A DNA stretch of 64,000 bases from Candidatus Nanoarchaeia archaeon (lineage in GTDB: Archaea > Nanobdellota > Nanobdellia > Woesearchaeales > JANQNC01). The notes below the pieces were generated by a model. It did no database searches. It was not told where the DNA came from and saw only the letters and a program-made list of their open reading frames with translations. Numbering within the stretch: position 1 is the first letter of the stretch; each line of letters opens with the position of its first letter. This document shows, piece after piece, positions 33,409 through 51,691 of this stretch. The stretch is from the NCBI GenBank assembly GCA_028279745.1, contig JANQNC010000001.1:914154-978153 (forward strand), read 5' to 3'. The position numbers and the translations under genes were made by a program.

Positions 33409-34191
33409 TTATTCTACATTAATCTTAACAGTAACATTATCTTCAGCGATGTTGTCAAAAATGTCATAGACTCTAGCACTTAGAAGGTAGTTCTTATTAG
33501 GATAACTAGAGGCATCAATAGTTGCAGTGTAAGGAGGATCTCTATCTACTCCAATGCTTGTATGGTTAAAGAAAAAATTAACTTTCTTTATGTACTCAGA
33601 TGCATTTATGCTAACTAAAACAGTATCTTCCTCAGTAACTTCTTCGTTATTAGAAGGATTAAGGATTTTTATAGATAAATAGTGTTCTTTTGCAGTACAA
33701 GTACAGTCAGAACTGCAGGTTTCATTAAATGAACAACCTGTTGGAGATGCAGAAGGATCACACATCTCACCTTCAGAAATAATTCCATCATCGCAAGTAC
33801 TTAGACAGACACAATCAACACACATAAAACCTTCATCACACCCATTAGGATCTGCTAAAGCATCACAAACTTCATTTTCACCTATAATTCTGTCAGGCAC
33901 ACAAACAGTTTCAGTGTTGTTTGTAGATATATTAACAGTTTCAGAATTGTTTAATGTTTGGTTAGTGTGTGTAATGTTTATTGTTTCGGTAACGTTAACT
34001 GTTTCATTAACAATAACATTTGCTTGGTTGTCATAAGTAATATTTACTTCCTCTGTAACATTTAATGTGGTGTTCTTAGGGATACTTTCAGCTTTAGGTG
34101 CATCGGCCCAGACATCATCGTCAGAGCTAATAGACTGAGCACAACCTGTAATAAGGATTGTCAATGCTAAAAGTATGAATAAATATTTCAT
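33409..34191 (-). CDS. Secreted/lipoprotein-like protein with N-glycosylation-sequon-rich region and Cys-rich module
   Basis: Signal MKYLFILLALTILITGCAQ; dense N-x-T/S sequons (NVTE, NITY, NETV, NVTE, NITH, NQT, NNS, NIS, NNT); ~20 Cys in CxxC/CxC arrangement. Confidence 0.5.
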   Translation of the reverse strand: MKYLFILLALTILITGCAQSISSDDDVWADAPKAESIPKNTTLNVTEEVNITYDNQANVIVNETVNVTETINITHTNQTLNNSETVNISTNNTETVCVPDRIIGENEVCDALADPNGCDEGFMCVDCVCLSTCDDGIISEGEMCDPSASPTGCSFNETCSSDCTCTAKEHYLSIKILNPSNNEEVTEEDTVLVSINASEYIKKVNFFFNHTSIGVDRDPPYTATIDASSYPNKNYLLSARVYDIFDNIAEDNVTVKINVE

Positions 34192-34269: not shown

Positions 34270-34992
34270 ATGCAAGAAAGAATACAGAAAATAATGGCAA
34301 ACAGGGGATACTGTAGTAGAAGAAGAGCTGAAGAGCTAATTGCAGAAGGAAAAGTAAGAGTTAATGGCAAATTAGTGAAGATAGGGGACTCAGCCGATAA
34401 AAACAAGTGCAGGATTACAGTAAAAGGAATTAAGCTGAAGAAGCCTGTTAGATTGTATTTTGCATTAAACAAACCGAAAGGTGTTGAATGTACATTAAAC
34501 AGCACTTCTGGGAAAGAGACAGTTGTATCTTTAGTTAAGACTAAAGAAAGAATCATTCCAGCAGGAAGACTGGATGTTGATAGCAGAGGACTGATATTGT
34601 TAACAAACGATGGAGGGTTTGCAAACAGGGTGATGCACCCCAGCTATGAACTAGATAAAGTGTATAAGGTCAAGGTAAAAGGAGAGGTCCCAACTGAAAA
34701 AATTGAATTAATGAGAAGAGGCATGGACATAGGAAAGGGGGACATAACAAGTCCTTGTGAAATAAAACTAATCAAACGAAGCGCAGACACGACTATGTTG
34801 ACCTTCAAAATACATGAAGGAAAAAATAGGCAAATAAGAAGGATGATAGAGAAAATAGGATTTAAAGTCATAGATCTTTTACGAATAAGAGTGGGAAACA
34901 TTACACTAAGAGGAATAGCTGAAGGAAGATATGTAGAAATAAAGAAAAAAGATCTAAATAATCTAAAAAGAAAACTGAAACTTATTCAATAA
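34270..34992 (+). CDS. Pseudouridine synthase, RsuA/RluB family (S4 domain + catalytic domain)
   Basis: S4-like N-terminus RANRGYCSRRRAEELI, catalytic GRLDVDSRGLILLTNDG with conserved Asp. Confidence 0.85.
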   Translation: MQERIQKIMANRGYCSRRRAEELIAEGKVRVNGKLVKIGDSADKNKCRITVKGIKLKKPVRLYFALNKPKGVECTLNSTSGKETVVSLVKTKERIIPAGRLDVDSRGLILLTNDGGFANRVMHPSYELDKVYKVKVKGEVPTEKIELMRRGMDIGKGDITSPCEIKLIKRSADTTMLTFKIHEGKNRQIRRMIEKIGFKVIDLLRIRVGNITLRGIAEGRYVEIKKKDLNNLKRKLKLIQ

Positions 34993-36751
34993 CTGCTTTA
35001 ATTCTTCTAACACCGCCAGAAGAAGACTGTTCTTTTTTAATCTTAAAATGACCAATCTCAGAAGTGTTATTTACATGAGGTCCACCGCAAAGCTCAGCAG
35101 AGAAATCACCGATCATGTACACGCTTACTTTATCTCCATACTTATCTTGGAATTCAGACTGAGCACCAAGTTTATTAGCTTCCTCTACTGACATCTCTTT
35201 TCTCTCAACAGGAAGAGCTTCCATGATCTTTTTATTGACTAAATCTTCCACTTCCTGCTTTTCTTCATCTGTAAGTTTTCTATCAAAGTTAAAATCAAAC
35301 CTTAATCTTTCAGGTGTTATGTTGGAACCTCTTTGCTTGATGTCTTTTGATAACACACGTCTCAATGCTTCTGCTAACAGGTGTGTTGCAGTGTGAAGCT
35401 TTTTAGAAATTTCAGAATCATCAGCCAAGCCACCTTTGAATTTCTTCTCAGCGCCTTTTCTAGACAGTTCTTGATGTTTCTTAAATTCTTCATTAAAACC
35501 TTTAACATCAACCTCAATTCCCTTTTCATTTGCTAACTCTTCAGTCATTTCGATAGGGAATCCGTATGATTGGAATAATAAGAATGCTTCTTTAGCAGAA
35601 ATCTTATTGTCAGAACCCATCTTATTGAATTCTTTAAGCCCTGTTTCAATAGTTCTGCCGAATTTTTCAGATTCTTTACTTAATTCATCAAGAATGAAAG
35701 ATTTGTTTTTGTTTAACTCCTCGTATTCATCTTTGTACTGTTCTATGATCAGTCTAGCAACCTCGTTTGTAAACTTAGCGGGCTCAGGAATACCTAAAGA
35801 TAAACAGTGTCTAATGCTTCTCCTGATAAATCTTCTAACAATATAACCTTGATCAACATTTGAAGGAGAGATCTTTCTTTCATCACCCATGATAAAAACA
35901 GCAGATCTCATATGATCTGCAATGATTCTCATAGAAACTGTGTAGTTTGGATCATCGTAACTTTTGTTTGACAATTCTTCAATCTTTTTTATCGTAGGTT
36001 GGAAAAGTTCTGTTTTGTAGTTATCATCCAAACCTTGCAAGATTGCAGTAACTCTTTCAACACCTAAACCTGTGTCTACGTTTAGTTGTTCTGCAGGTTC
36101 GTATCTTCCATCTTTTGTCTTAGTGTACTGCATAAAAACATCATTCCAGATTTCTACCCAATCTTTATTGTCTGGATCAAAGGTTTCAGGTACGGGGTCT
36201 TTTCCAGTCCAGTAAAACATCTCGGTGTCAGGACCACAAGGACCCGTTTCACCAGCAGGACCCCACCAGTTATCCTTTTTTGGTAAAAAAGTAATTTTGT
36301 TTTCAGGAAAGCCCAAGCTTTTCCAAACTTCGTAAGCTTCAGTATCTTTTTCAGAATCATCGTCACCTTCAAAACAAGTAACTGCTAGTTTCTCGATAGG
36401 AAAGTTAAGCTGTTGTGTAAGAAATTCAAAGCTTATCTTTATTGCATCTTCCTTGAAGTAATCACCTAAGCTCCAATTGCCAAGCATCTCAAAGAAAGTG
36501 TGGTGGACTTTGTCACCAACCTCATCAATATCTCCAGTTCTAACACACTTCTGAACATCGCAGAGTCTTTTACCTTGTGAGTGTGGTTCACCTAGTAAGA
36601 ATGGAACCAAAGGATGCATACCTGCAGTTGTAAATAGAACTGTAGGATCGTTTTCAGGAACCAATGAAGATGAAGGTATCCTCTTATGATCCTTACTTTC
36701 AAAGAAACTTAAGTACAGTTCCTTTAGTTCTTTAGCTGTTTTAATAGTCAT
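34982..36751 (-). CDS. alaS: Alanyl-tRNA synthetase (catalytic + editing domains, no C-Ala domain)
   Basis: FTTAGMHPLVP, HHTFFEMLGNWSLGDYFK class II AlaRS motifs; editing-domain zinc motifs HTATHLL and CGGPHV; 589 aa. Confidence 0.8.
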   Translation of the reverse strand: MTIKTAKELKELYLSFFESKDHKRIPSSSLVPENDPTVLFTTAGMHPLVPFLLGEPHSQGKRLCDVQKCVRTGDIDEVGDKVHHTFFEMLGNWSLGDYFKEDAIKISFEFLTQQLNFPIEKLAVTCFEGDDDSEKDTEAYEVWKSLGFPENKITFLPKKDNWWGPAGETGPCGPDTEMFYWTGKDPVPETFDPDNKDWVEIWNDVFMQYTKTKDGRYEPAEQLNVDTGLGVERVTAILQGLDDNYKTELFQPTIKKIEELSNKSYDDPNYTVSMRIIADHMRSAVFIMGDERKISPSNVDQGYIVRRFIRRSIRHCLSLGIPEPAKFTNEVARLIIEQYKDEYEELNKNKSFILDELSKESEKFGRTIETGLKEFNKMGSDNKISAKEAFLLFQSYGFPIEMTEELANEKGIEVDVKGFNEEFKKHQELSRKGAEKKFKGGLADDSEISKKLHTATHLLAEALRRVLSKDIKQRGSNITPERLRFDFNFDRKLTDEEKQEVEDLVNKKIMEALPVERKEMSVEEANKLGAQSEFQDKYGDKVSVYMIGDFSAELCGGPHVNNTSEIGHFKIKKEQSSSGGVRRIKAVIE

Positions 36752-38100: not shown

Positions 38101-38571
38101 ATGCGATGTCCATACTGCTCAAAAACTGATACTAAAGTAGTAGACAAAAGAGATTCTGAAGAAGAGCCAGTAATTAGACGAAGGAGGGAATGCCTTAAAT
38201 GTGGTAAAAGATTTACAACATATGAAAGAGTAGATATGGTAGATCTAACAGTGATAAAGAAAGACGGAAAGAAAGAACAGTTTGACAGAGAAAAGTTGAA
38301 AAGAGGGATGTTAAGAGCAGCAGAAAAAAGGATAAGCATGGAGCAGATAGACAAAGCGATAGATGAGATCGAATCAACATTAAGAAAAAAGAATACAACA
38401 GAAATCAAAGGGCCGCAGATAGGAGATCTAGTTATGAAAAAGTTAAAGAAACTAGACAATATAGCTTACATAAGATTTGCGTCAGTCTACAGAGAGTTTG
38501 AAGACTTGACAGACTTACAAGGCGAGATAAGAGAAATTATCAAGAAAGAAAAGAGTAAGAATTCTAAATAG
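38101..38571 (+). CDS. nrdR: Transcriptional repressor NrdR (zinc ribbon + ATP-cone)
   Basis: MRCPYCS…RRRECLKCGKRFTTYE zinc ribbon followed by ATP-cone; 156 aa. Confidence 0.85.
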   Translation: MRCPYCSKTDTKVVDKRDSEEEPVIRRRRECLKCGKRFTTYERVDMVDLTVIKKDGKKEQFDREKLKRGMLRAAEKRISMEQIDKAIDEIESTLRKKNTTEIKGPQIGDLVMKKLKKLDNIAYIRFASVYREFEDLTDLQGEIREIIKKEKSKNSK

Positions 38572-39015: not shown

Positions 39016-39420
39016 ATGAGAAAAGGCCAAGTTGCCATGGAATACGTGATGATAGTTGGGTTTGCAACCCTGATAGCAATACCATTATTCCTAATATTCA
39101 ACTTTTATACATTAGAAACAAGAGACGAAGTTATATTGAGCCAAGCAGACAGCATAGCAACAAAAATAGTTGACTCTGCCGAATCAGTTTATTACATTGG
39201 AGAACCATCCAAAATAACTCTTAAGATCTATATGCCAGTGGGTGTAGAAAATATTACAATACAAGATGGATATGTTGTTTTAAGAGCAAGCACGAAAGGA
39301 TTATCGACAGACATAGTAAAATCATCTGACGTAAATATCACAGGAACGTTAAACATAGTGCCTGGAATGAAGAACATAAACATAGAAGCGAGAGGTGACT
39401 ATGTTTGGGTAGAAGGTTAA
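39016..39420 (+). CDS. Class III signal-peptide (type IV pilin-like) protein
   Basis: N-terminus MRKGQVAMEYVMIVGFATLIAIPLFL = archaeal prepilin-type signal (KGQ + hydrophobic helix). Confidence 0.65.
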   Translation: MRKGQVAMEYVMIVGFATLIAIPLFLIFNFYTLETRDEVILSQADSIATKIVDSAESVYYIGEPSKITLKIYMPVGVENITIQDGYVVLRASTKGLSTDIVKSSDVNITGTLNIVPGMKNINIEARGDYVWVEG

Positions 39421-39797
39421 AAGCACAGACATCAACAGAGTTTGTTCTGTTCATAAGCGTAGTATTCTTAGTGACTTTGATAGTATTATCATCTATTCTA
39501 TATTACTTAAGAGAGTACACTTCAGAAAAAGAGTATAACGTACTAAAAAAACAGGCAGAAGTAATAAAAAACGAATTATACCTTGCATCAACAGTAGAAA
39601 ATGGGTATTTGAGAATGTTCCAGATAAAATCTCCACAAGACGACATAGTCTTTAACTTTACACAAGAAAACAATTCATTAATACTGACTTCAAGACGTCA
39701 GCAATTCATAGCAGATCTGGGCGTTAAGATAAACGGAACATTAGTGATGGGAAATAACACAATAAGAAACATAGAAGGTGCAGTCCATGTCAACTAA
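39405..39797 (+). CDS. Class III signal-peptide pilin-like protein
   Basis: MGRRLKAQTSTEFVLFISVVFLVTLIVL; overlaps upstream gene. Confidence 0.5.
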   Translation: MGRRLKAQTSTEFVLFISVVFLVTLIVLSSILYYLREYTSEKEYNVLKKQAEVIKNELYLASTVENGYLRMFQIKSPQDDIVFNFTQENNSLILTSRRQQFIADLGVKINGTLVMGNNTIRNIEGAVHVN

Positions 39798-40875
39798 AAA
39801 CAAGAAAGCACAAGTATGGACAACAGACTTTTCACTTAGCCTTTTGGTGTTTGTGATAGCAATAGTACTTTTCGGCAGAGCAATAACAAATCTTTCATCG
39901 TCAACAGGAGAAAACATAGACGACTTAGTGAGTGAAGGAAGATTAGTGACAGATTCTTTAACATCGGAAGGGTACCCTTCAAACTGGACCGTTGCAAACG
40001 TAAAACGAGTTGGGTTGATGGGGCAAGGCAAATTGTTGGAGAATGACAAATTACAGAACATGCTCAATATGACTTACCAAGATGCGCGAGAGATATTAGG
40101 GACAAAGTATGATTATTTCTTATTCTTCATAGACGAAAAAGGAGAACTAGTAAACGTATCAGAAAACTTGGGTGTGGGACATCCTAATGTGTACGCGATA
40201 GGATCAAGAAAAGACACAAATACCATAGCATACTACCAAAAAGAAAACTTGCTTCTAGATGAGATGCAAGAGCTTAATGCAACAGTATTTACAGGAGGAT
40301 CAAAATCACAGTTCATAGGCAACATAACAAACTATGAGGTTCTAGTGATGGAAGATCCACACTTTTCAGACATAGAGATAGACGTGGTTGAAGAGTATGT
40401 TTTAGAGGGGGGCAAACTAATAATCACAGAACACATAACAGACACAAGCGGAACATACTTTGGAGTGAATTTTGTACATAGGAGCATGAACGCAGGAAAC
40501 GAGCTGGCAACAGTGATAAGCGCAGATTCAAATATGCCTTTCTCAATAGGTGAAACATACACGCCAAGAGAGTATCCTTATATAGATGCTGCACATATAG
40601 ACAAGATAGCAACATACCCTGATGGAAAAGTGGCGATGGCAACCTTCGGATATGGAAGCGGGAAAGTTTATTATCTAAGCGATTCAGATAATCCAGACTA
40701 TTTAGGAGATTTTGAAGAAGAGATAAAAACAGCAACAACAAATTTTTTACTTGAAGAAAGACCAGAAAATTATGTAGAATTAAACCAGATACAATATAAC
40801 AAACTAGTCACGATAACAAGACTTATAGTCATGAATGGAAAAGTAACAAGGATGGTGCTATACATATGGGACTAA
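39778..40875 (+). CDS. Large class III signal-peptide pilin-like protein
   Basis: KKAQVWTTDFSLSLLVFVIAIVLF N-terminus; 365 aa; overlaps neighbours. Confidence 0.5.
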   Translation: MQSMSTKNKKAQVWTTDFSLSLLVFVIAIVLFGRAITNLSSSTGENIDDLVSEGRLVTDSLTSEGYPSNWTVANVKRVGLMGQGKLLENDKLQNMLNMTYQDAREILGTKYDYFLFFIDEKGELVNVSENLGVGHPNVYAIGSRKDTNTIAYYQKENLLLDEMQELNATVFTGGSKSQFIGNITNYEVLVMEDPHFSDIEIDVVEEYVLEGGKLIITEHITDTSGTYFGVNFVHRSMNAGNELATVISADSNMPFSIGETYTPREYPYIDAAHIDKIATYPDGKVAMATFGYGSGKVYYLSDSDNPDYLGDFEEEIKTATTNFLLEERPENYVELNQIQYNKLVTITRLIVMNGKVTRMVLYIWD

Positions 40876-43589
40876 AGAAAGGATACTATTTCAGCGTTGA
40901 TGCCATACTTGGATTAAGTATAGTGTTGGTTGGGATACTTATCATGGGATCTTTTTATTCAAACCAGCAGGAGACAACCCACTTAACATATGTTGCAGAC
41001 GATCTAATAGAGGTTTTATCTACTGTACAGATAAGTGATGTGAACAACACATATGTACAAGAACTTATCGCAACAGGCCATATAACAAACACAAATAGTT
41101 CTTTACTGGAACAAATAACAAAACTTTGGGTGGAAGGAAAACATACAAGAGCAAGCGAGATGGCTCGAAACATAACCGAACAGATAATTCCTGACAACAT
41201 CATGTTTAGCATACTTGTGGATGGAGGTGTAGTCTATGAGAGAACAAACACAAGCTCAAACGTACTTGTACTGAGTAAAGAGCTAGTCTCAGGAATGGAA
41301 ACAGGAAAAGCACCAAAAGGATCAACCGCAAGAATGTATCTTACAGGAATAAAATCAAAAGAGACAAACGCTTACGTATACTTTGGCGGATTTACAGGAC
41401 AAGGAAACGTGACAATGTCCATAACAGACTTACCAAGTGATGCAAACATAACTGAGATGGAAATAGAAGGTGACTTTGGAGCAAGTTTCTGGCTGGAAAT
41501 AAATGAACAGTTATGTGGAAGTTTTGTACCTGTTGCTGGAGAGCTAGCGGCAGATGCGTGGGACATAACAAGTTGTAACAATCTAGTTGATGTGGGCAGC
41601 AATGTACAAAATAATTTTTCAATATCTTTTACGGGAGAGATGGAGGAGAAATATATAGGTGGTGGTTTCATAAGGATGAAATACACAACCGAAACACTAT
41701 ACGAAAATAAGACCTTAGGAAATCAAAAAATTTATCTTCCTGGGATAGACGGAATCATAAACTTATTCTCGGGGATAAACATCCCCGGAACATTAAACCA
41801 GATGAACTTACACTTACATTATTTCTCAAACCACTCAGACTTTTCAGTACCTTTATTCTTCTCATTTGGAGACGTGCAAGTCTATAACGACACAAACAGC
41901 ACAACACCACAAACAATAGACATAGATGATGCACAACTTTCATCTTTGCTTGACTATGGTGAATTAAGCAACACCACAGTACCGATAAGGTTTGGGTTTT
42001 CAAATGTAAGTTACTTGACAGAGTTTGTAGGATTAGCAGATGTAATGTTAGTAAGTGACTTATCAGGAAGCATGGAATTCTGTATGAATAGAAATGACGG
42101 CTATGAAACAGACTGGGTATGGACAAACTTTAACTTCCCAGATCAATCAGGAGCGGCAGCGTGCGGAAGAAAATGGGAGAGGGACGGTAATTGTCCAAGC
42201 AATGCCCCAAGAAGGATAGACGTAGCAAAAAATGCAAGCAAAGCATTTGTAGAAGCATTATTTAACACAACAGGAAACAGGATAGGCACAGCAGAATATT
42301 CTGCATTTTACTCATCAGGAACTTATGTACAACAACCCTGCGGAACAAATATACAAGAATTCCCTGGAGGGATAGTAACACAAGAAAGTCTAACAACAGA
42401 TCAAATAGTCTTAGAAAACCACATAGATGACATGGCAGTATGGTATGGAACTTGCATATGCTGTGGAGTAAATAGAGGTATGCAAGTATTACAAGCAAAC
42501 AGCAACGCATCAAGAATAGGATCCATAGTTGTAATGACTGATGGAGATGCAAACCAAGAATGCCCTGAACAAGGTAACACAGGAGATCTGGATGGAGATG
42601 GAAGTTCAGATACAGCAAGAGATGATGCAGTGCAAGCAGCACTTGATGCCTGTGCTTTGAACTATTCAGTATACACAGTTGGATTTGGTCCAGGAGCATA
42701 CAACGGGACAATGATCGCGATGGCATGTAATGGAGGAAGTTACTATTCTGCATCAGACATGGACACACTTATAGATGCATACACTGCAATAGCAAACCAG
42801 ATAAGAGTTGCAACAATGCAAGCGCAAACGATAGTTGTGTCTGGAAACAATATAACATCATCACAAATATATCCCGATTCTTACATAGAAATAAACTACA
42901 CTCCAACATATAATCCAGTAGAGTTTGGAGAGATATCTGTAACTTTACAATCAGACCAATTTCCAAACTGTTCAGGAAGCTGGTATATCTCTGATGATCT
43001 TACTATAGTAGACTCAAGCGCCACTTCATATTCAGCACAGCACTGGACAGACCTTGTAAGAGTAAACAACCAAACAAGCTTTAATCTGAGCTATTTCGGA
43101 ACAGACTATACTTCGTTAGGAGATCCTTATCTAGCATATGTCAAGCCAGAAAGTTTCATAACAGGGATTAATAATATCACAATAGTGTCTGCAGATGAGA
43201 TAGCAAACGATACTTTCTGTTCAACAAACAACTCATTGATATATACTGCAATGGCAAAATCTTCAGTCTCATACGGAACAGTATTGGAAAGAGAGGAAGG
43301 TTGTAATTGGTTTGTAGAGTTTGAAGATGGAGGCAATGCAACATTAGCAGTGCCGCAAGGATATGCAGGAAATAAAACTTGCAGTTACACCGGATCTTCG
43401 ATAAGTTATGATACAGATGATTCATATGATGATGCGATGTACAGATTGTTAGAAGGGCTGGATTTTGATGATGATGGAAGAACATACTTTAATTTTGATC
43501 AAAGCGATATAGGGTTTAATGTAATTACGATTTCAGAAGTACCTTACATGTGGGGGCCGACAGGGGTCGAGGTGAGAACATGGCAATGA
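40866..43589 (+). CDS. Pilus-associated giant protein with von Willebrand factor A domain (candidate tip adhesin)
   Basis: Prepilin-like N-terminus GLKKGYYFSVDAILGLSIVLVGILI; MIDAS DVMLVSDLSGSME and downstream VVMTDGDANQ vWA motifs; 907 aa. Confidence 0.65.
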   Translation: MGLKKGYYFSVDAILGLSIVLVGILIMGSFYSNQQETTHLTYVADDLIEVLSTVQISDVNNTYVQELIATGHITNTNSSLLEQITKLWVEGKHTRASEMARNITEQIIPDNIMFSILVDGGVVYERTNTSSNVLVLSKELVSGMETGKAPKGSTARMYLTGIKSKETNAYVYFGGFTGQGNVTMSITDLPSDANITEMEIEGDFGASFWLEINEQLCGSFVPVAGELAADAWDITSCNNLVDVGSNVQNNFSISFTGEMEEKYIGGGFIRMKYTTETLYENKTLGNQKIYLPGIDGIINLFSGINIPGTLNQMNLHLHYFSNHSDFSVPLFFSFGDVQVYNDTNSTTPQTIDIDDAQLSSLLDYGELSNTTVPIRFGFSNVSYLTEFVGLADVMLVSDLSGSMEFCMNRNDGYETDWVWTNFNFPDQSGAAACGRKWERDGNCPSNAPRRIDVAKNASKAFVEALFNTTGNRIGTAEYSAFYSSGTYVQQPCGTNIQEFPGGIVTQESLTTDQIVLENHIDDMAVWYGTCICCGVNRGMQVLQANSNASRIGSIVVMTDGDANQECPEQGNTGDLDGDGSSDTARDDAVQAALDACALNYSVYTVGFGPGAYNGTMIAMACNGGSYYSASDMDTLIDAYTAIANQIRVATMQAQTIVVSGNNITSSQIYPDSYIEINYTPTYNPVEFGEISVTLQSDQFPNCSGSWYISDDLTIVDSSATSYSAQHWTDLVRVNNQTSFNLSYFGTDYTSLGDPYLAYVKPESFITGINNITIVSADEIANDTFCSTNNSLIYTAMAKSSVSYGTVLEREEGCNWFVEFEDGGNATLAVPQGYAGNKTCSYTGSSISYDTDDSYDDAMYRLLEGLDFDDDGRTYFNFDQSDIGFNVITISEVPYMWGPTGVEVRTWQ

Positions 43590-44518
43590 TGAATAGGAAA
43601 GCGGTGTTCTATACAGTAGTTGGAGTTATAATGGTTTTTACACTTCTACTTTTATTCATTGTTTATGAAAAAGAACCCTCTATAGATAAGACATCAGTAA
43701 TATTGACAAGAGTAAAAACAACAAATAACTTTTTAGAAAACATAAATAGAGATCTTGAAAGAGCATTGCAGATATCAAGCATGAGGGCATCACTATCTTT
43801 GTTAGAACATATAACAACAACTGGAGATTTTGTAGACGATTCAAAAGCAAGGTATGAAGAAGCGATAGTTGATGGAACTGTAAATGGAAACCAGATGATT
43901 TTGATGGAGAATACAACATTCGTAGATTGGATTAATAAAATAGAATCCGAAGCAAATAGAATTGGGGTGATGACAAACATAACTCTGATTGTTGTAAGTG
44001 TATACCAAGAAGATCCTTGGCATGTAAAGAGCACAGCAAACATAACTATGCGAGTAAGAGATTCAAAAGACACTGCAGAATGGACACAGACAAAACAGAT
44101 GCAGACAAAAATACCTATTGTTGGGTTAGAGGATCCTCTTTACTTAGTCAATACTTATGGGAGAGTGGCGAACATAATTAATGTAACCCCTTATGAAGGA
44201 GATTATGTTCAAGGAAGCAATGTTGCAAACTTAACAATACATCTTAACAGTTCACTTTATACAAACTCAACGTTAGCACCATCTTTCTTAATGAGATTAG
44301 AAAACGATTTAGGAAGTTCACCTTTTGGGATAGAGAGCATGGTAAACTTAAACAAGTTAGAAGAACAAGGGATCACAACTAAAAACAGAAGTAACATAGA
44401 CTATATCTACTTTGGATTTGGTTCCACAACAAACTATAAAGTGACTGGATTACCGACGTGGTTCCATATAGATGATGGCCATGTCAATAGATATCAAGTT
44501 CAGAATCTAACATACTAA
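43580..44518 (+). CDS. Class III signal-peptide pilin-like protein
   Basis: MAMMNRKAVFYTVVGVIMVFTLLLLFIV; ATG 43580 after GGTGA; ATGA overlap with upstream stop. Confidence 0.45.
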   Translation: MAMMNRKAVFYTVVGVIMVFTLLLLFIVYEKEPSIDKTSVILTRVKTTNNFLENINRDLERALQISSMRASLSLLEHITTTGDFVDDSKARYEEAIVDGTVNGNQMILMENTTFVDWINKIESEANRIGVMTNITLIVVSVYQEDPWHVKSTANITMRVRDSKDTAEWTQTKQMQTKIPIVGLEDPLYLVNTYGRVANIINVTPYEGDYVQGSNVANLTIHLNSSLYTNSTLAPSFLMRLENDLGSSPFGIESMVNLNKLEEQGITTKNRSNIDYIYFGFGSTTNYKVTGLPTWFHIDDGHVNRYQVQNLTY

Positions 44519-44632: not shown

Positions 44633-44692
44633 CTCAAAACTCCAAAATTAGAGTTGTGTTAAAACTAACACAAAAAACATGAGGTGATATTC

Positions 44693-44932
44693 ATGGCAGC
44701 AAAGAAGAAAAAAAAAGCAGCTAAGAAAAAGAAAAAAGTTGTAAAAAAGAAAAAGGCTAAAAAGAAAGCTAAGAAAAAAGCTAAAAAGAAAAAAGCAGTG
44801 AAGAAGAAAGCTAAAAAGAAAGCAAAGAAGAAAAAGGCTAAAAAGAAAAAAGCTAAGAAAAAGAAAGCTAAGAAAAAAGCTAAAAAGAAAAAGGCTAAAA
44901 AGAAAAAAGCTAAGAAAAAGAAAAAAAGATAG
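44693..44932 (+). CDS. Highly basic Lys/Ala-repeat mini-protein (79 aa, >65% Lys), histone-H1/Hc1-tail-like
   Basis: MAAKKKKKAAKKKKKVVKKKKAKKKAKKK…; ATG with SD, upstream TATA, downstream hairpin terminator; opposite-strand frame would encode poly-Phe, implausible. Confidence 0.45.
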   Translation: MAAKKKKKAAKKKKKVVKKKKAKKKAKKKAKKKKAVKKKAKKKAKKKKAKKKKAKKKKAKKKAKKKKAKKKKAKKKKKR

Positions 44933-45049: not shown

Positions 45050-45718
45050 ATGATCGAAACAGGTGTAGATAGACTTATAAGCTTAGTAAACGAGAAAAAA
45101 AAGATTTCTTTTAAGGATGCAGCAAAGGAATTGGCAGTAGATATATCTACAGTAAAAGAATGGTCAAGCATAATGGGTGACGAGGACAACGTCATCATAG
45201 AGTATAAGTTCACAACACCTTTCTTAGTCATGAAAGGAGAAACAAAGAAGTCAAAAGCGCCAAAAAATCAGAAGATAGACAAGCTTCACAAAGAAAAAGA
45301 AGAACAGATAAAAAAAGTTGAAGAAAGTATAGGCTCATTAAACGAACATCAAACAGGCATAGAACAAGCAAAAGAAAGGATAAGCGGGATAAAAGATGAT
45401 CTTGCAAAGCATTCAAGCGAGCTTCAAAAACAAATTTCAGGACTTGTAGGTGGAAAAGAAGAAGTTAATCCTGAAAAACTAAAAAAGTTCATTATGCAAA
45501 GGATAAACGCGATAAACAAAAAACTGATAGAAGAAGAACAAAAATATGAAGACTTTGCAAACAAAGTAAAAAAAGAGACAGACACACTTAACGATTCATT
45601 TAAGAATATGGCAACACATCTAAAAAAAACTGCAGACTGGATAAACTACTTCAAAGAACATGATGCTGAACAAGAGAAAAGAATAAAAGAACTTGAAAAA
45701 GGTGCAAAGAAAAAATGA
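45050..45718 (+). CDS. Coiled-coil protein with N-terminal wHTH-like segment, translationally coupled to pilus ATPase
   Basis: Lys/Glu-rich heptad-like region; stop overlaps ATPase start (ATGA). Confidence 0.5.
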   Translation: MIETGVDRLISLVNEKKKISFKDAAKELAVDISTVKEWSSIMGDEDNVIIEYKFTTPFLVMKGETKKSKAPKNQKIDKLHKEKEEQIKKVEESIGSLNEHQTGIEQAKERISGIKDDLAKHSSELQKQISGLVGGKEEVNPEKLKKFIMQRINAINKKLIEEEQKYEDFANKVKKETDTLNDSFKNMATHLKKTADWINYFKEHDAEQEKRIKELEKGAKKK

Positions 45719-47148
45719 AGCTTGTAGATGAATATAACTTCACATCAGATAAGGTGCCTGTTAAAGTACAGATAGTTCTGCAAGATGGAGAATATGTGCC
45801 ATTGTATGTTGCATCAGTGATGGACATATCCAAAAGTGCAGAAAGAGTTCTTGAAAGAGTAAGAGAAGAAACAATCAACGAAGTAAAAATAGACATGGCC
45901 GATTTAGGGGATGTCAAAAAAAGAGATATAATAAGGCAAAAGTTTGAAGAAAAAACAAAAGAGTTGATCACAAAATACTTTCCAGACGCATCAAAAGATC
46001 TAGTTGAATTCTTTACATCATTCTTGATACAAAAGAGTATGGGGTTAGGAGACATAGATCTTCTAAAAAATGACGATCTTCTGGAAGAGATAACTGTAAA
46101 TGGATCTGCAGAACCGGTTTGGGTATACCACAGAAAACACGGGTGGTTAAAGACAAATATTTTACTGCCATCAGAACAACACATCAACCACATATCAACA
46201 ACAATAGGAAGAGACATAGGAAGACAGATAAATGTTTTAGAACCATTAATGGACGCAAGCTTAGACACGGGGGACAGGGTTAACGCAACATTGATGCCCA
46301 TCTCAAACAGAGGAAACACAATAACAATAAGGAAATTCTCAAAAACTCCCTGGACAATAGCAAACATAATCAAAGCAGGAACAATATCATCACAAGGAGC
46401 AGCACTAGTCTGGTTAGGGATGCAGTATGAACTATCAGCACTAATAGCAGGAGGAACGGGGTCAGGAAAGACAAGTATGATGAATGCATTATCAAACTTT
46501 TTCCCTCCAAACCAAAGGATACTAAGTATAGAAGATACAAGAGAGCTAACTTTGCCGGACATTCTACACTGGGTGCCAATGATGACCAGGTTACCCAATG
46601 CAGAAGGAAAAGGGGAGGTAACTATGCTTGATCTATTAGTGAATTCATTGAGGATGAGACCCGACAGGATACTGGTGGGAGAGATAAGAAGACAGAAAGA
46701 AGCAGAAGTACTTTTTGAAGCTATCCACACAGGACACTCAGTATACGCAACAATACACGCAAACGACGCAAGAGAAACAATATCAAGACTTACAAACCCA
46801 CCAATAGAAGTTCCAAAGATGATGCTTCCAGCGCTAAGCATGATAGTGGTACAGCACAGAAACAGGAGAACTGGTGGAAGAAGAACTTTCCAAATAGCAG
46901 AAGTAACAAAAGAAGGAGATCCGAATGTATTACAACAACTTGATCTAAAAACTGATAAATTATATCAGAAAAACAAATCACAGTCCATACTAGACACTTT
47001 AACAATGCACATAGGAATAACCGAGCAAGAGATGCTCCAAGACATGAAAGAAAAAGAAGGCATACTGAAGTGGTTAGTCAAAGAAAACATAATGGACGTA
47101 CATAAAATAGGAAGGATAATAGCAGACTATTATCAGAAACATAGTTAA
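45715..47148 (+). CDS. Type IV pilus/archaellum-family assembly ATPase (FlaI/TadA/GspE-like, VirB11 superfamily)
   Basis: Walker A GGTGSGKTS, Asp box, Walker B ILVGEIR, His box; 477 aa. Confidence 0.9.
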   Translation: MKLVDEYNFTSDKVPVKVQIVLQDGEYVPLYVASVMDISKSAERVLERVREETINEVKIDMADLGDVKKRDIIRQKFEEKTKELITKYFPDASKDLVEFFTSFLIQKSMGLGDIDLLKNDDLLEEITVNGSAEPVWVYHRKHGWLKTNILLPSEQHINHISTTIGRDIGRQINVLEPLMDASLDTGDRVNATLMPISNRGNTITIRKFSKTPWTIANIIKAGTISSQGAALVWLGMQYELSALIAGGTGSGKTSMMNALSNFFPPNQRILSIEDTRELTLPDILHWVPMMTRLPNAEGKGEVTMLDLLVNSLRMRPDRILVGEIRRQKEAEVLFEAIHTGHSVYATIHANDARETISRLTNPPIEVPKMMLPALSMIVVQHRNRRTGGRRTFQIAEVTKEGDPNVLQQLDLKTDKLYQKNKSQSILDTLTMHIGITEQEMLQDMKEKEGILKWLVKENIMDVHKIGRIIADYYQKHS

Positions 47149-47188: not shown

Positions 47189-48007
47189 ATGTTTATAGAT
47201 GATATTTCTGAAAGAATTTCAAAGTCTTTACCTGAGCTAAAAACAGTTCTGAAACAAGCAGGACTTAAAGGGGAACCGCAACTGTTTGTAAAAAAAACAT
47301 TAGTGTCAGCAATCTATATGTCAGTTGGAGTAAACATACTGTTCTTATTTGCATTCCTTAAATTGGGAATTTCACCATTATTCCTTCTGATATCATTATT
47401 GATAATAACCCCAATAATGTTTGCATACTTGATAAAGACACCAGTAGTATACATACAAAAGAGAAGAAAAGAAATCAATAAAGAGATAATATTTGCAGGC
47501 AGAGCATTATTGATAGAACTAGACTCAGGAATATCTTTATTTAACTCACTAGTAAGCATATCAAGAGGTTATGGGTTAGTTGGTGAGGAGTTCAAAAAAA
47601 TAGTAACACAAATCAAGATGGGAACTCACATAGAAGATGCAATAGATAAAGTAATAGAAACCACCCCTTCTGATAATCTAAGAAGATTATTATGGCAAAT
47701 ACTTAACTCACTAAAAACCGGATCAAACGTAGCAAGATCAATAGAAGAAGTACTAGAACAAATAGCAAAAGAACAGATCATAGAAGTAGAAGCATATGGA
47801 AAAAAACTGAATCCTCTGGCGATGTTTTACATGATGATGGCAGTAATAGTTCCATCCTTAGGAATAACAATGTTAGTAGTATTAGCAAGCCTGATCTCAT
47901 TTAACATGACCTTGCCGATGTTGATCGGGTTAGCAGTATTTGTAGGATTATTCCAAGCGATGTTTATCGTGATGATAAAATCAATGAGGCCAGCAATAGA
48001 GCTATAA
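47189..48007 (+). CDS. TadC/FlaJ-like polytopic membrane protein (T2SS-F domain) 1
   Basis: Size/topology and position immediately after secretion ATPase; AGGGGTGAAGG RBS. Confidence 0.7.
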   Translation: MFIDDISERISKSLPELKTVLKQAGLKGEPQLFVKKTLVSAIYMSVGVNILFLFAFLKLGISPLFLLISLLIITPIMFAYLIKTPVVYIQKRRKEINKEIIFAGRALLIELDSGISLFNSLVSISRGYGLVGEEFKKIVTQIKMGTHIEDAIDKVIETTPSDNLRRLLWQILNSLKTGSNVARSIEEVLEQIAKEQIIEVEAYGKKLNPLAMFYMMMAVIVPSLGITMLVVLASLISFNMTLPMLIGLAVFVGLFQAMFIVMIKSMRPAIEL

Positions 48008-48008
48008 G

Positions 48009-49019
48009 ATGATAGAAGAAATCGGAAAGTTTGTAACACCAAAAAAACTTGAAAAATCATTAAAACAGAAATTAATAGTCTCAGGAATAAAGATGAAACC
48101 GGAAGAGGTGACGGGTTCTGCATTTTCTCTTAGTATTTTCGTTTCATTGATAATCTTCTTCTTACAAATATTTCCGTTGAGAGATCAGTATGCGGCTAAT
48201 GGCGCAATGCTGGTCATATTATCATTAGTGTTCTTTTTGATTTTATTATTAATCACCTTAGTTGTTTTGGGCGTTGTAATATTTACGTTCTTTAACTTGA
48301 GAGGGTATTCAAGAGCAAAACAGATAGAAGAAGTATTGCCTGACTTTTTGCAATTGACAGCTGCAAACATACGATCAGGAATGATGATAGACAAAGCGAT
48401 GTGGTTAGCAGTAAGACCAAGATTTGGGATACTTGCAGAAGGGATAGAGATAGTCGCAAAAAAAACATTATCAGGACATGAAATATCAGATGCGCTAAAC
48501 GAATTCGTAGCAAAATATGACAGCTTATTATTACAGAGATCCATGCATTTAATGATAGAAGGGATGGAGTCAGGAGGAAAGATGGCAGAACTTCTGAATA
48601 AGATCTCCTGGAACGTAAGAGAAACACAACTTATGAGAAAAGAGATGGCAGCAAGCGTAATGACATATGTAATATTCATATCATTTACAGTACTATTGGC
48701 AGCACCGTTCCTTTATGGGCTATCATACACATTGTTAACAGTAATAGGACAGATCATACCTTCACTACCCGAACAATCAGGAACATCTGCAATGATGATA
48801 AGCTTCTCAGAAATAAGCATATCACCTGATGAATTTAGCATATTTGTAATGGTTTCATTAGCGATCACTTCATTATTTTCAGCAATAATAGTATCAACAA
48901 TACAAAAAGGGTCGGCAAAAGCAGGAATAAAACTCATACCTGCTTTCATAGTCGTGTCGGTAGTTTTATTCATAATATTTAGAACGGTGTTATCCTCTGT
49001 GTTCTCTGGATTCTTTTGA
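48009..49019 (+). CDS. TadC/FlaJ-like polytopic membrane protein (T2SS-F domain) 2
   Basis: Second T2SS-F-like membrane protein; start 1 nt after upstream stop. Confidence 0.7.
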   Translation: MIEEIGKFVTPKKLEKSLKQKLIVSGIKMKPEEVTGSAFSLSIFVSLIIFFLQIFPLRDQYAANGAMLVILSLVFFLILLLITLVVLGVVIFTFFNLRGYSRAKQIEEVLPDFLQLTAANIRSGMMIDKAMWLAVRPRFGILAEGIEIVAKKTLSGHEISDALNEFVAKYDSLLLQRSMHLMIEGMESGGKMAELLNKISWNVRETQLMRKEMAASVMTYVIFISFTVLLAAPFLYGLSYTLLTVIGQIIPSLPEQSGTSAMMISFSEISISPDEFSIFVMVSLAITSLFSAIIVSTIQKGSAKAGIKLIPAFIVVSVVLFIIFRTVLSSVFSGFF

Positions 49020-49130: not shown

Positions 49131-49562
49131 ATGAAAAAAGGACAAGCAGCAATGGAGTTCTTAATGACCTATGGATGGGCAATTCTAGTTGTTCTTATAG
49201 CAATTGGAGCTTTAGCTTATTTCGGTGTACTAAGCCCAGATAAACTACTGCCAAACCAGTGTAGGTTAGCACAAGGATTGTATTGTAAGTCACACAAAGC
49301 TGATACCGCCGGAGTTAGTGTTTTAATAGTGAACTCACTAGGAAAAGACATAACTGTAACAGGTATCAACATAACAGACCAGTCAGGATGTGATGCGTCA
49401 TTCAGTACAGCATTAGCTAATGACCAGCAAGCACAGTTCGACGTGGCGTGTACAATAACTGCAGGAACAAAGATCAAATCAGATATTGCAGTGACTTACG
49501 ACGAAACAGGTGGACTTTCAGGGCTTAAGAATTCTGGAAATTTCATCGCACAAGTAGAATAA
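49131..49562 (+). CDS. Class III signal-peptide pilin (candidate major pilin)
   Basis: MKKGQAAMEFLMTYGWAILVVLIAIGALAYF; own promoter and T-rich terminator. Confidence 0.75.
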   Translation: MKKGQAAMEFLMTYGWAILVVLIAIGALAYFGVLSPDKLLPNQCRLAQGLYCKSHKADTAGVSVLIVNSLGKDITVTGINITDQSGCDASFSTALANDQQAQFDVACTITAGTKIKSDIAVTYDETGGLSGLKNSGNFIAQVE

Positions 49563-50698: not shown

Positions 50699-51691
50699 GT
50701 GGAGGATGATAAGATGAAAAAAATAATCTTAATGGTGCTGGTTGCAATTATGAGCATTAGTTCTGTTTTTGCAGCAATAGCTGGGTGCGATCCTTTTCTT
50801 TTAGGTTCTTGTACTACAAGATGTAATGATATGATTTCGCCTACAGGTACAGCGGTAGGGTGGAATTTGAATGTTCAAGGTAATAACTTTGTTTGTCAGA
50901 GCACAGGTGCTACTTATACGGGTGGGCTTTTTGATATTGATTCAGATATAGCTGATGGGGGATGGTGTAACTCGTTGTCTGTTCCTAGGGTGAATGAGGG
51001 TCCGTGTATGCATGTTTACTATTCTGAAACTGAAAGTAATGTTTATTGCGCGGGCTATGAAAGAGCGGGTGAGCCAGTTACGTTGGCGAATGTAGCGACA
51101 CATTGTAGGGTGTCAGGTGTTCCTGATTACTCTGCTTTTGATTTTAGCGATCCTTTCTTTGCAGGAACTGGTGCACCTGGTGGAATAACATTAATAAGCG
51201 ACTGTGATCCTGCTCTTCCAGGATCTTGTACTGCAAGATGTAATGATATAATGTCTCCTACAGGCACAGCAAATATTTGGAGTTTGAACCTTCAATCTGG
51301 TTTTGTTTGTCAGAGCACAGGTGCTACTTATACAGGCGGGCCTTTCGATATTGATTCAGACATAGGTGATAGTAGATGGTGTAACTCATTATCTGTTCCA
51401 AGGGTGAATGAGGGTCCATGTATGCATGCATACTACTCCGAAACTGAGAGTAACGTTTATTGCGCAAGCTATAAAAGAGCGGGTGAACCAGTTACGTTGG
51501 CAAATGCAGCAACACACTGTAGGGTATCGGGTGTTGAGGACTATTCAGCTTTTGATTTTAGCGATCCTTTCTTCGCAGGACATTTAGTAGACCAAGTACA
51601 GGGTGTACCTGAGATTAGTGTAGCATCTTCAATAATTGCATTGATAGCAGTTCTTGCAGTAGTCGGAGTTATAGCGGTTAGAAAGCGCTAG
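50699..51691 (+). CDS. Secreted, C-terminally membrane-anchored protein made of two ~140-aa Cys-rich tandem repeats
   Basis: Signal MKKIILMVLVAIMSISSVFAA; repeat 1 CDPFLLGSC…DFSDPFFAG and repeat 2 CDPALPGSC…DFSDPFFAG ~80% identical; C-terminal TM SIIALIAVLAVVGVIAVRKR. Confidence 0.55.
   Translation: MEDDKMKKIILMVLVAIMSISSVFAAIAGCDPFLLGSCTTRCNDMISPTGTAVGWNLNVQGNNFVCQSTGATYTGGLFDIDSDIADGGWCNSLSVPRVNEGPCMHVYYSETESNVYCAGYERAGEPVTLANVATHCRVSGVPDYSAFDFSDPFFAGTGAPGGITLISDCDPALPGSCTARCNDIMSPTGTANIWSLNLQSGFVCQSTGATYTGGPFDIDSDIGDSRWCNSLSVPRVNEGPCMHAYYSETESNVYCASYKRAGEPVTLANAATHCRVSGVEDYSAFDFSDPFFAGHLVDQVQGVPEISVASSIIALIAVLAVVGVIAVRKR

Follow-up and report, generated by a model that had tools for sequence, protein, structure and literature searches.

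A conserved archaeal protein combining a von Willebrand A domain with a pilin-type N-terminus, encoded in a type IV pilus locus

We analysed a 64,000-nucleotide stretch of the genome of a Candidatus Nanoarchaeia archaeon (contig JANQNC010000001.1, positions 914,154 to 978,153 of the forward strand; hereafter the window, with all positions counted from its first letter). One open reading frame (ORF) in the window encodes a 907-amino-acid protein, p907, for which an original prediction made from the DNA letters had proposed a prepilin-like character and a von Willebrand A (vWA) domain with a metal ion-dependent adhesion site (MIDAS). The p907 gene occupies the fourth place in a cassette of five genes with the order p134-p130-p365-p907-p322, and a T2SSE-type ATPase, two T2SSF-type proteins and a canonical pilin, p143, all lie within 6 kb of it, the T2SSE and T2SSF genes being 2-5 kb downstream. 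We find that this interpretation of p907 as a vWA-bearing, pilus-associated protein is supported, with caveats that are given below. The p907 gene and its features are as follows.

40866..43589 (+): p907, the 907-amino-acid vWA/MIDAS protein with a pilin-type N-terminus; uninterrupted ORF with an ATG start
40866..41024 (+): amino acids 1-53, a basic leader, a putative cleavage site after G6, and a hydrophobic-to-amphipathic helix
41355..42005 (+): beta-sandwich region, amino acids 164-380, with invariant FGGxxGxGN and PGIxGxINLY motifs
42033..42815 (+): vWA domain, amino acids 390-650, recognised by the family profile against the PDB, Pfam matches of homologues, and Foldseek
42057..42071 (+): MIDAS motif D398-L-S400-G-S402, recognised by motif position and conservation
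42450..42452 (+): MIDAS threonine T529 in GTCICCG, kept in 84/87 relatives and directly before helix 531-545
42540..42542 (+): MIDAS aspartate D559 in VVMTDGDANQ, kept in 83/87 relatives and after strand 551-558
42843..43586 (+): conserved C-terminal beta-rich domain, amino acids 660-907, with SYS..WTD, LGDP and WGP...RVW motifs

The reading frame at 40866-43589 was unbroken, as had been proposed, and its ATG start at 40866 is supported by homologues that have the same N-terminus (M-x-x-K-K-G). This start overlaps the stop of the upstream p365 by 10 nucleotides (40866-40875, ATGGGACTAA), and the stop of p907 is in turn overlapped by 10 nucleotides by the likeliest start of p322 (43580-43589, ATGGCAATGA); the overlap geometry is the same at both junctions. 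The p322 gene is listed as an ORF at 43550-44518 beginning with GTG, and the ATG at 43580 is the likelier start. Taken as listed, the ORFs of p134 and p130 overlap by 16 nucleotides and those of p130 and p365 by 20 nucleotides. These overlapping start and stop codons along the cassette suggest translational coupling or co-translation.

Searches with p907 alone recovered almost nothing: a Pfam scan returned no matches even at E <= 1, an NCBIfam scan aligned no more than 38 residues with the vWA region of hCaCC (E 0.0034), and phmmer against the PDB produced only noise. We attribute this failure to long insertions in the protein, one of which, a cysteine-containing insert in the vWA domain at amino acids 411-440, is disordered in the AlphaFold2 model. 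Among 30 full-length homologues, 25 matched VWA_2 and 22 matched VWA in Pfam, and a 30-homologue profile searched against the PDB retrieved the type V pilus tip protein Mfa5 (7.5e-19), a BatA-like structure (4rck, 2e-14), the Streptococcus sanguinis minor pilin PilB (1.3e-7), and also collagen VI. The AlphaFold2 model, which was built with an alignment of 87 sequences, was confident (mean predicted local distance difference test score, pLDDT, 88.1; predicted template modelling score, pTM, 0.70) and placed strands alternating with helices across amino acids 391-650. Foldseek comparison of this model with the PDB gave 213 matches at E <= 0.001, the top 50 of which were almost all vWA structures, led by ITIH1 (8.5e-13), SpaC (5e-10), PitA (2e-9), PilB (~1e-8), and Mfa5 (1e-8); the vWA domain of LapA was also among the matches. 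The vWA fold was thus recovered both by profile and by structure prediction.

Short MIDAS motifs are by themselves no proof of such a site, and we therefore used the alignment of 87 relatives together with the model. The DLSGS motif, which had been placed near nucleotide 42050, lies at amino acids 398-402, and the second predicted motif, VVMTDGDANQ, lies at amino acids 555-564, beginning at nucleotide 42528. Among the 87 relatives D398 is conserved in 85, serine or threonine at position 400 in 85, S402 in 81, T529 in 84, and D559 in 83. In the model the DxSxS motif follows strand 391-398, the threonine precedes helix 531-545, and the aspartate follows strand 551-558, which as modelled is the placement expected of a vWA fold. 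We considered whether the motif might be a chance resemblance and rejected this, given that its residues are conserved in 81-85 of 87 relatives and fall in the right places of the modelled fold. We conclude firmly that p907 contains a vWA domain with a complete MIDAS (DxSxS, T, and D), as had been predicted.

In approximately half of the relatives, those of 1000-2031 amino acids, an insertion of 150-610 amino acids splits the vWA domain at a point corresponding to p907 amino acid ~545 (nucleotide ~42500). The relatives considered were P0002-P0087 and P0092; where an insertion is present it falls between helix 531-545 and strand 551-558, and that of P0092 includes CARDB and Laminin_G_3 (ConA-like lectin) domains. 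The presence of variable modules inserted in the vWA domain supports a ligand-binding role for the p907 family.

Two further conserved regions flank the vWA domain. The region before it is modelled as strands across amino acids 164-378, mostly with pLDDT >90, and has invariant columns at G174, G175, G178, G180, G296, and N299; as a whole (amino acids 164-380) it had no match by sequence in Pfam or the PDB. The C-terminal domain (amino acids 660-907) is likewise modelled mostly with pLDDT >90, has invariant columns at S721, Y722, S723, W727, T728, G752, and D753, and gave no match to a known family. The protein ends in a conserved beta strand and is without a C-terminal anchor.

The richness in N-x-S/T sequons that had been noted from the sequence was borne out, with 28 sequons in p907 compared to 11.7±3.0 in 1000 composition-preserving shuffles (z = 5.45). 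Their density is 3.1 per 100 amino acids in p907 and ~0.8-1.2 in the cytoplasmic ATPase, the alanyl-tRNA synthetase, and the SMC protein of the window. Sequon enrichment with z > 2 was found in 82 of the 87 relatives, in which several columns of sequons, N181 (94%) among them, are also conserved. From sequon enrichment alone we predict that p907 is probably N-glycosylated. Cysteines show a similarly uneven distribution, with 16 in p907 and four in p143, whereas the ATPase, the TadC proteins, p222 (a coiled-coil protein described below), and the remaining four members of the cassette have none. Together, the sequons, the cysteines, and the lectin-type modules of the long variants point to an extracellular adhesin character for p907. 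Elsewhere in the window, a 260-amino-acid ORF on the reverse strand (33409-34191, -) is also sequon-rich, with 14 sequons where 5.0 would be expected (z 4.7), and a run of NxT repeats accounts for many of them; its N-terminus resembles a lipoprotein signal by eye. This second sequon-rich protein, which is probably secreted, suggests active N-glycosylation in the organism.

The p907 family is widespread. We found 86 homologues, annotated as 'hypothetical' or 'VWA domain-containing protein', and all named sources are labelled as DPANN archaea, a grouping of very small symbiotic archaea represented here by Woese-, Nano-, Pace-, Aenigmat-, and Micrarchaeota, except for one metagenome-assembled genome (MAG) labelled Chloroflexi. 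A scan of one genome per species recovered p907 relatives in 379 stretches, the best 80 of which come from DPANN and Altiarchaeota MAGs together with some MAGs labelled Methanosarcinales. Among 1.84 billion cluster representatives, relatives of 727-2031 amino acids were present in 562 clusters at E <= 1e-30. By these counts the family is large and conserved, and not a one-off.

The remaining genes of the cassette and the pilus locus are listed here; in the N-terminal motifs a slash marks the presumed cleavage site.

39016..39420 (+): p134, small pilin-like protein, cassette gene 1; MRKG/QVAMEY, with Q at +1 and E at +5
39405..39797 (+): p130, small pilin-like protein; LKA/QTSTEF, family consensus KAQvaiEF
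39778..40875 (+): p365, larger pilin-like protein; KKA/QVWTTDF, with Asp at +6
43580..44518 (+): p322, cassette gene 5; MAMMNRKA/VFYTVV, no acidic residue
44684-44932 (+): lysine/alanine-rich 82-amino-acid ORF lying between p322 and the coiled-coil gene; low-complexity repeat
45050..45718 (+): p222, coiled-coil protein, directly upstream of the ATPase gene and overlapping it
45715..47148 (+): type IV filament assembly ATPase (FlaI/TadA/PilB-like); Pfam T2SSE, 5.8e-39
47189..48007 (+): TadC/PilC-like platform protein 1; Pfam T2SSF, 2.2e-15
48009..49019 (+): TadC/PilC-like platform protein 2; Pfam T2SSF, 1.8e-11
49131..49562 (+): p143, candidate major pilin; MKKG/QAAMEFLMTYGWAILVVLIAIGALAYF

We evaluated the conservation of this arrangement across 81 independent related loci, using as denominators the loci with enough flanking sequence; counts of orthologues are out of 83 loci. 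Immediately upstream of the vWA gene, 61 of 68 loci have a p365-like gene, and downstream of it 70 of 73 have a p322-like gene. Across several DPANN phyla, 51 of 59 loci retain the full cassette in the same order. Orthologues of p134 and p130 were found in 65 and 63 loci, respectively. Of the 33 related loci with full flanks, 30 have the ATPase and TadC genes within 10 kb of the vWA gene. This machinery occurs in one of two arrangements, downstream and oriented like the vWA gene or upstream and divergent from it. The MAGs that carry related loci are labelled Woese-, Nano-, Pace-, Aenigmat-, Nanohal-, and Altiarchaeota.

The assembly genes were assigned by their family matches. In addition to its T2SSE match, the ATPase matched the NCBIfam models FlaI (3e-76) and TadA (3e-55), both under the equivalog cutoffs. 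The coiled-coil protein p222 had only weak coiled-coil matches in Pfam; it has an orthologue in 42 of the 83 loci, usually of ~380 amino acids compared to 222 in the window. The 82-amino-acid ORF at 44684-44932 consists of imperfect tandem repeats of ~15 nucleotides (AAAAAGAAAAAAGCT) and has no equivalent at this position in loci L002 and L004; it may encode a genuine basic protein or represent nothing more than a repeat.

Six protein families of the locus, p134, p130, p365, p907, p322, and p143, have an N-terminus of the same general design, which in its canonical form (K-[GA]/Q-x-x-x-E) is found in p134, p130, and p143, with a variant K-A/Q-x-W-x-x-D in p365 and a K-[GA] motif that lacks an acidic residue in p322. 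The N-terminus of p143 is the most conserved in the locus; phmmer returned no match for this protein, and its match to the Pfam family Class_IIIsignal (PF04021) was weak (E 0.23, 11.9 bits). The corresponding match of p134 (E 0.0017 / 4e-4, 20.6 bits) was also under the curated cutoff of 23.7 bits. For p365, which had no relative by sequence in a PDB profile search, the family falls into two sizes, ~330-400 amino acids in the window copy and 18 related loci and ~120-190 amino acids in most others, so that a C-terminal domain is optional; this region of the window copy gave weak Pfam hints of Glyco_hydro_42M (E 0.01) and ABC_transp_aux (E 0.024). A PDB profile search also found no relative of p322. 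Alone among the cassette families, that of p322 combines a pilin-type N-terminus with a helix devoid of the acidic residue. The tip-most subunits of bacteria, such as GspK, are likewise not known to carry this residue, and by analogy we speculate that p322 may be the cap and that p907 may sit directly below it.

The N-terminus of p907 begins with the leader MGLKKG followed by YYFSVDAILGLSIVLVGILIMG. A [KR][GA]x5[DE] motif succeeded by ~20 hydrophobic residues is present in 74 of 87 relatives, most of the others being near variants or truncated, and the five residues between [KR][GA] and the acidic residue are mostly aromatic or hydrophobic. Position 12 is Asp in 83 and Glu in two of the 87 relatives, and the family consensus reads KKG.fFtlDAllA. 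AlphaFold2 predicts a continuous helix over residues 5-53 (49 residues) in the full model and over residues 11-53 in a separate model of the N-terminus. A conserved charge at a fixed spacing from a small residue is needed by a processed pilin and not by a plain membrane anchor.

We then compared profiles of the first 45 residues of the six pilin-like families with each other using hhalign. Two groups were recovered, the first consisting of p134, p130, and p143 (96-98% probability; p134 to p130 and p143, 97-98%; p130 to p134, 98%; p143 to p134 and p130, 96-97%), and the second of p365, p907, and p322 (85-97%), within which p907 matched p365 at 96.6% and p322 at 96.5%. The two groups are bridged by p130 and p365, at 88.5% probability. 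Judged by these motifs and profiles, the p907 N-terminus is of pilin-type design in a pilin-type context.

Taking these lines of evidence together, we favour, with moderate confidence, the reading that p907 serves an archaeal (DPANN) type IV pilus as a modular, minor-pilin-like adhesin and is comparable in function to PilB or TadG. The five-gene cassette would then act as the minor pilins of the type IV pilus locus. In the mechanism that we propose, p907 would be inserted in the membrane via its N-terminal hydrophobic helix, and a prepilin peptidase encoded elsewhere would cut the short basic leader after Lys-Lys-Gly6. The resulting helix of ~47 residues, with its Asp buried, would pack with the helices of p134, p130, p365, and p322 in a priming or tip complex, and the ATPase and the two TadC-like proteins would polymerise the major pilin p143 beneath this complex, pushing p907 outward. 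The beta-sandwich region, the vWA domain, and the C-terminal beta domain would thereby become extracellular at or near the pilus end, probably in N-glycosylated form. There, the MIDAS residues D398, S400, S402, T529, and D559 would bind a divalent cation, and a ligand carried by another cell or surface would complete the coordination of this cation through an acidic group, resulting in metal-dependent adhesion. For a DPANN archaeon, the most likely target would be the surface of its host cell.

Several observations weigh against this reading. The acidic residue of p907 is at +6 from the presumed cut after Gly6, compared to Glu at +5 in p134, p130, and p143, and direct hhalign comparison of the p907 N-terminus with these canonical pilins gave probabilities of only 5-11%. 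The N-termini of p907 and two relatives had no match to PF04021 at E <= 10, and Class_IIIsignal was not among the Pfam families matched by the 30 homologues. When the N-terminal 160 amino acids were modelled alone, Foldseek found no solved pilin in the PDB (best E 2.7), a result that must be read with the cut at 160 probably truncating a domain, and structure comparison recognised no pilin head domain in p907. No prepilin peptidase was present among the multi-transmembrane ORFs in the flanks of the 83 loci or in the 64-kb window, an absence that we regard as not informative. Among the papers searched, we found no experiment or paper on the p907 family and no described vWA pilin of DPANN archaea. 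Finally, the pilin part of the reading draws on the N-terminal design and its context, from which we infer cleavage, filament assembly, and the position of p907 in or on the filament. The prepilin-like N-terminus of the original prediction thus holds with regard to the leader, motif, helix, and locus context, but not with regard to a PF04021 match or a pilin head fold.

Many of these points would equally suit a protein that is never cleaved. In this alternative p907 is a membrane-anchored accessory of the pilus, its N-terminal helix acting as a lasting signal anchor, with its vWA domain at the pilus base tying the machine or filament to the envelope or S-layer, much as the FlaF and FlaG proteins of the archaellum are located at the base and tie that machine to the envelope or S-layer. 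The unmatched PF04021, the poor direct likeness to the canonical pilins of the locus, the missing pilin head fold, and the lack of a peptidase gene nearby all speak for such an anchor, and the linkage to the pilus machinery is equally compatible with an anchor and a pilin. It leaves unexplained, however, the strictly spaced [KR][GA]x5D motif and the charged residue inside a hydrophobic helix, and the same design is common to three cassette proteins that are linked by profile to the canonical pilins. Moreover, while TadG was once proposed as a membrane anchor of the pilus, an idea cited by Makarova et al. (PMC4858521), TadG-like proteins have lately been reread as minor pilins of a tip complex (PMC12075869). 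We therefore regard an uncleaved anchor as possible but doubtful.

The structure of p907 would also be compatible with a stand-alone surface adhesin or envelope protein that functions independently of the filament and is encoded near pilus genes by chance, since a vWA domain with a flanking beta-sandwich is common in surface adhesins (as in the matches to SpaC, PitA, and the LapA vWA domain) and richness in sequons and cysteines suits any surface protein. We consider this unlikely in view of the cassette order that is kept in 51 of 59 loci, the start/stop overlaps, and the machinery that is found nearby in 30 of 33 loci; in addition, the conserved beta strand at the p907 C-terminus leaves it without a C-terminal anchor. 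Lastly, vWA proteins of the ArnB type (arCOG02900) are known as regulators of archaeal type IV filament systems (PMC4858521), and the ArnAB structure 8s05 was among the weaker Foldseek matches (E 2e-6), which might suggest that p907 is a cytoplasmic regulator of pilus or archaellum expression. Such a role is extremely improbable, and we rejected it given the N-terminal hydrophobic membrane helix, the 28 sequons, and the 16 cysteines of p907; furthermore, no FHA partner or MoxR ATPase is encoded near p907, and ArnA and ArnB are reported never to be encoded in pilus loci (PMC4858521).

Our favoured reading of p907, a modular minor-pilin-like adhesin, has precedents in bacteria. Bacterial minor pilins prime filament assembly and end at the tip, and their large modular members bear a functional domain; if our reading holds, p907 is the archaeal version of this known principle, a type IV pilus adhesin with a modular build and a vWA domain. 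By analogy, the closest characterised parallel is PilB, the vWA-carrying minor pilin of S. sanguinis (PDB 7b7p; PMC8179133), which resembles p907 in placing a bulky, MIDAS-complete vWA domain after an N-terminal helix, of pilin type in PilB and of pilin-type design in p907. Each of the two genes also lies in a type IV pilus locus alongside genes for minor pilins, putative ones in the case of p907 (PMC8179133). The two differ in that PilB is bacterial and has the IPR012902 N-terminal motif, a bacterial signature that would not be anticipated in an archaeon, whereas p907 is archaeal and has [KR][GA]x5D; p907 is also twice as long, its vWA domain being preceded by an additional beta-sandwich and followed by a 250-amino-acid beta domain, and the identity of the two vWA sequences is only ~13% in the Foldseek alignment. 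Raynaud et al. (PMC8179133) surveyed modular pilins by way of a bacterial motif and made no mention of archaea.

The architecture of p907 had also been likened to that of the pilus tip adhesins PilY1/PilC and TadG, and here the comparison stands as one of analogues and not of relatives. TadG and KilN resemble p907 as large modular proteins encoded beside smaller pilin-like proteins, a TadA-like ATPase, and a TadC-type platform, with the same proposed role of priming and functionalising the pilus tip (PMC12075869). TadE-F-G and KilL/M/N are tip complexes of bacterial Tad pili (PMC12075869), and some TadG proteins carry a vWA domain (PMC4858521). The p907 cassette differs from these systems in having five genes instead of three and in its archaeal lineage, and the likeness is one of architecture and locus; we rejected membership of the TadG family given that no TadE/Tad N-terminal motif of Pfam was found in p907 or 30 relatives. 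PilY1 of Pseudomonas aeruginosa has a vWA domain (PMC8179133) and resembles p907 in its role in adhesion and in its proposed presentation at the tip by a minor-pilin complex encoded alongside. PilY1 is not a pilin, however, and is defined by a C-terminal beta-propeller (IPR008707), of which p907 and 30 relatives had no Pfam match; no PilY1 was among the top 50 Foldseek matches, and membership of the PilY1/PilC family was likewise rejected for lack of a beta-propeller domain. The best profile and structure matches of p907 include Mfa5, of type V pili, and SpaC and PitA, which like GBS104 belong to sortase pili; all four are tip adhesins in which, as in p907, the vWA domain is flanked by beta-sandwich domains. 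These proteins are assembled by sortase or strand exchange, whereas p907 has no LPXTG or lipoprotein signal.

Among archaeal systems, the nearest descriptions are the conserved type IV pilus-like loci of cluster 2 DPANN archaea reported by Hamm et al. (bioRxiv 10.1101/2023.02.24.529834), which are likewise built around a coiled-coil protein, a CpaF-like ATPase, and TadC. Ca. Nanoclepta minutus is among the archaea for which that work reports such pilus loci. The lineages named there (Woese-, Pace-, Nano-, Aenigm-, and Nanohaloarchaeota) match those of the p907 loci, including the related locus L042 from a Nanohaloarchaeota MAG, and p222 resembles the coiled-coil proteins described there by position and coiled-coil character alone. 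Neither the five-gene cassette nor a vWA protein is mentioned in the section of that work that describes these loci. The census of archaeal type IV pili by Makarova et al. (PMC4858521) brings up vWA proteins solely as regulators of the ArnB type and cites TadG as an example from bacteria.

Little is known of the ways in which DPANN archaea locate their hosts and attach to them, and few of these archaea have been cultivated. While pilus loci have been noticed in these lineages, no adhesin has been assigned to them. As a large and conserved family that is tied to a pilus locus, p907 and its relatives appear to be good candidates for host-attachment adhesins, and it is plausible that they represent a widespread host-attachment molecule of DPANN archaea. 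More tentatively, and with less confidence than we place in the minor-pilin reading, the cassette may encode a tip complex that several DPANN lineages have in common, in which the vWA/MIDAS subunit would recognise and grip hosts and the inserted modules, some of them lectin-like, would set host range. Archaeal episymbiosis would then have a tangible attachment molecule that is shared widely. The intact metal-dependent adhesion site provides a specific, mutable target (D398, S400, S402, T529, and D559). If the proposed role is correct, modular pilins, which pair a pilin helix with a grafted functional domain, extend from bacteria to archaea. The modular-pilin principle is already established in bacteria, and the p907 mechanism holds nothing unexpected in this regard.

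The window contains several other features outside the pilus locus. Its GC (guanine plus cytosine) content is ~35%, and GatD/GatE-like, CDC48-like, and PCNA-like ORFs were recognised by eye from their translations. A 330-amino-acid, secreted-looking protein (50699-51691, +), for which no family match was found, has two very similar cysteine-rich repeats of ~130 amino acids followed by a C-terminal hydrophobic segment. A short alanyl-tRNA synthetase of 589 amino acids is encoded on the reverse strand (34982-36751, -). Upstream of the cassette, an NrdR repressor with a Zn ribbon and an ATP-cone (38101-38571, +) is present in this archaeal genome, NrdR being mainly a bacterial regulator.

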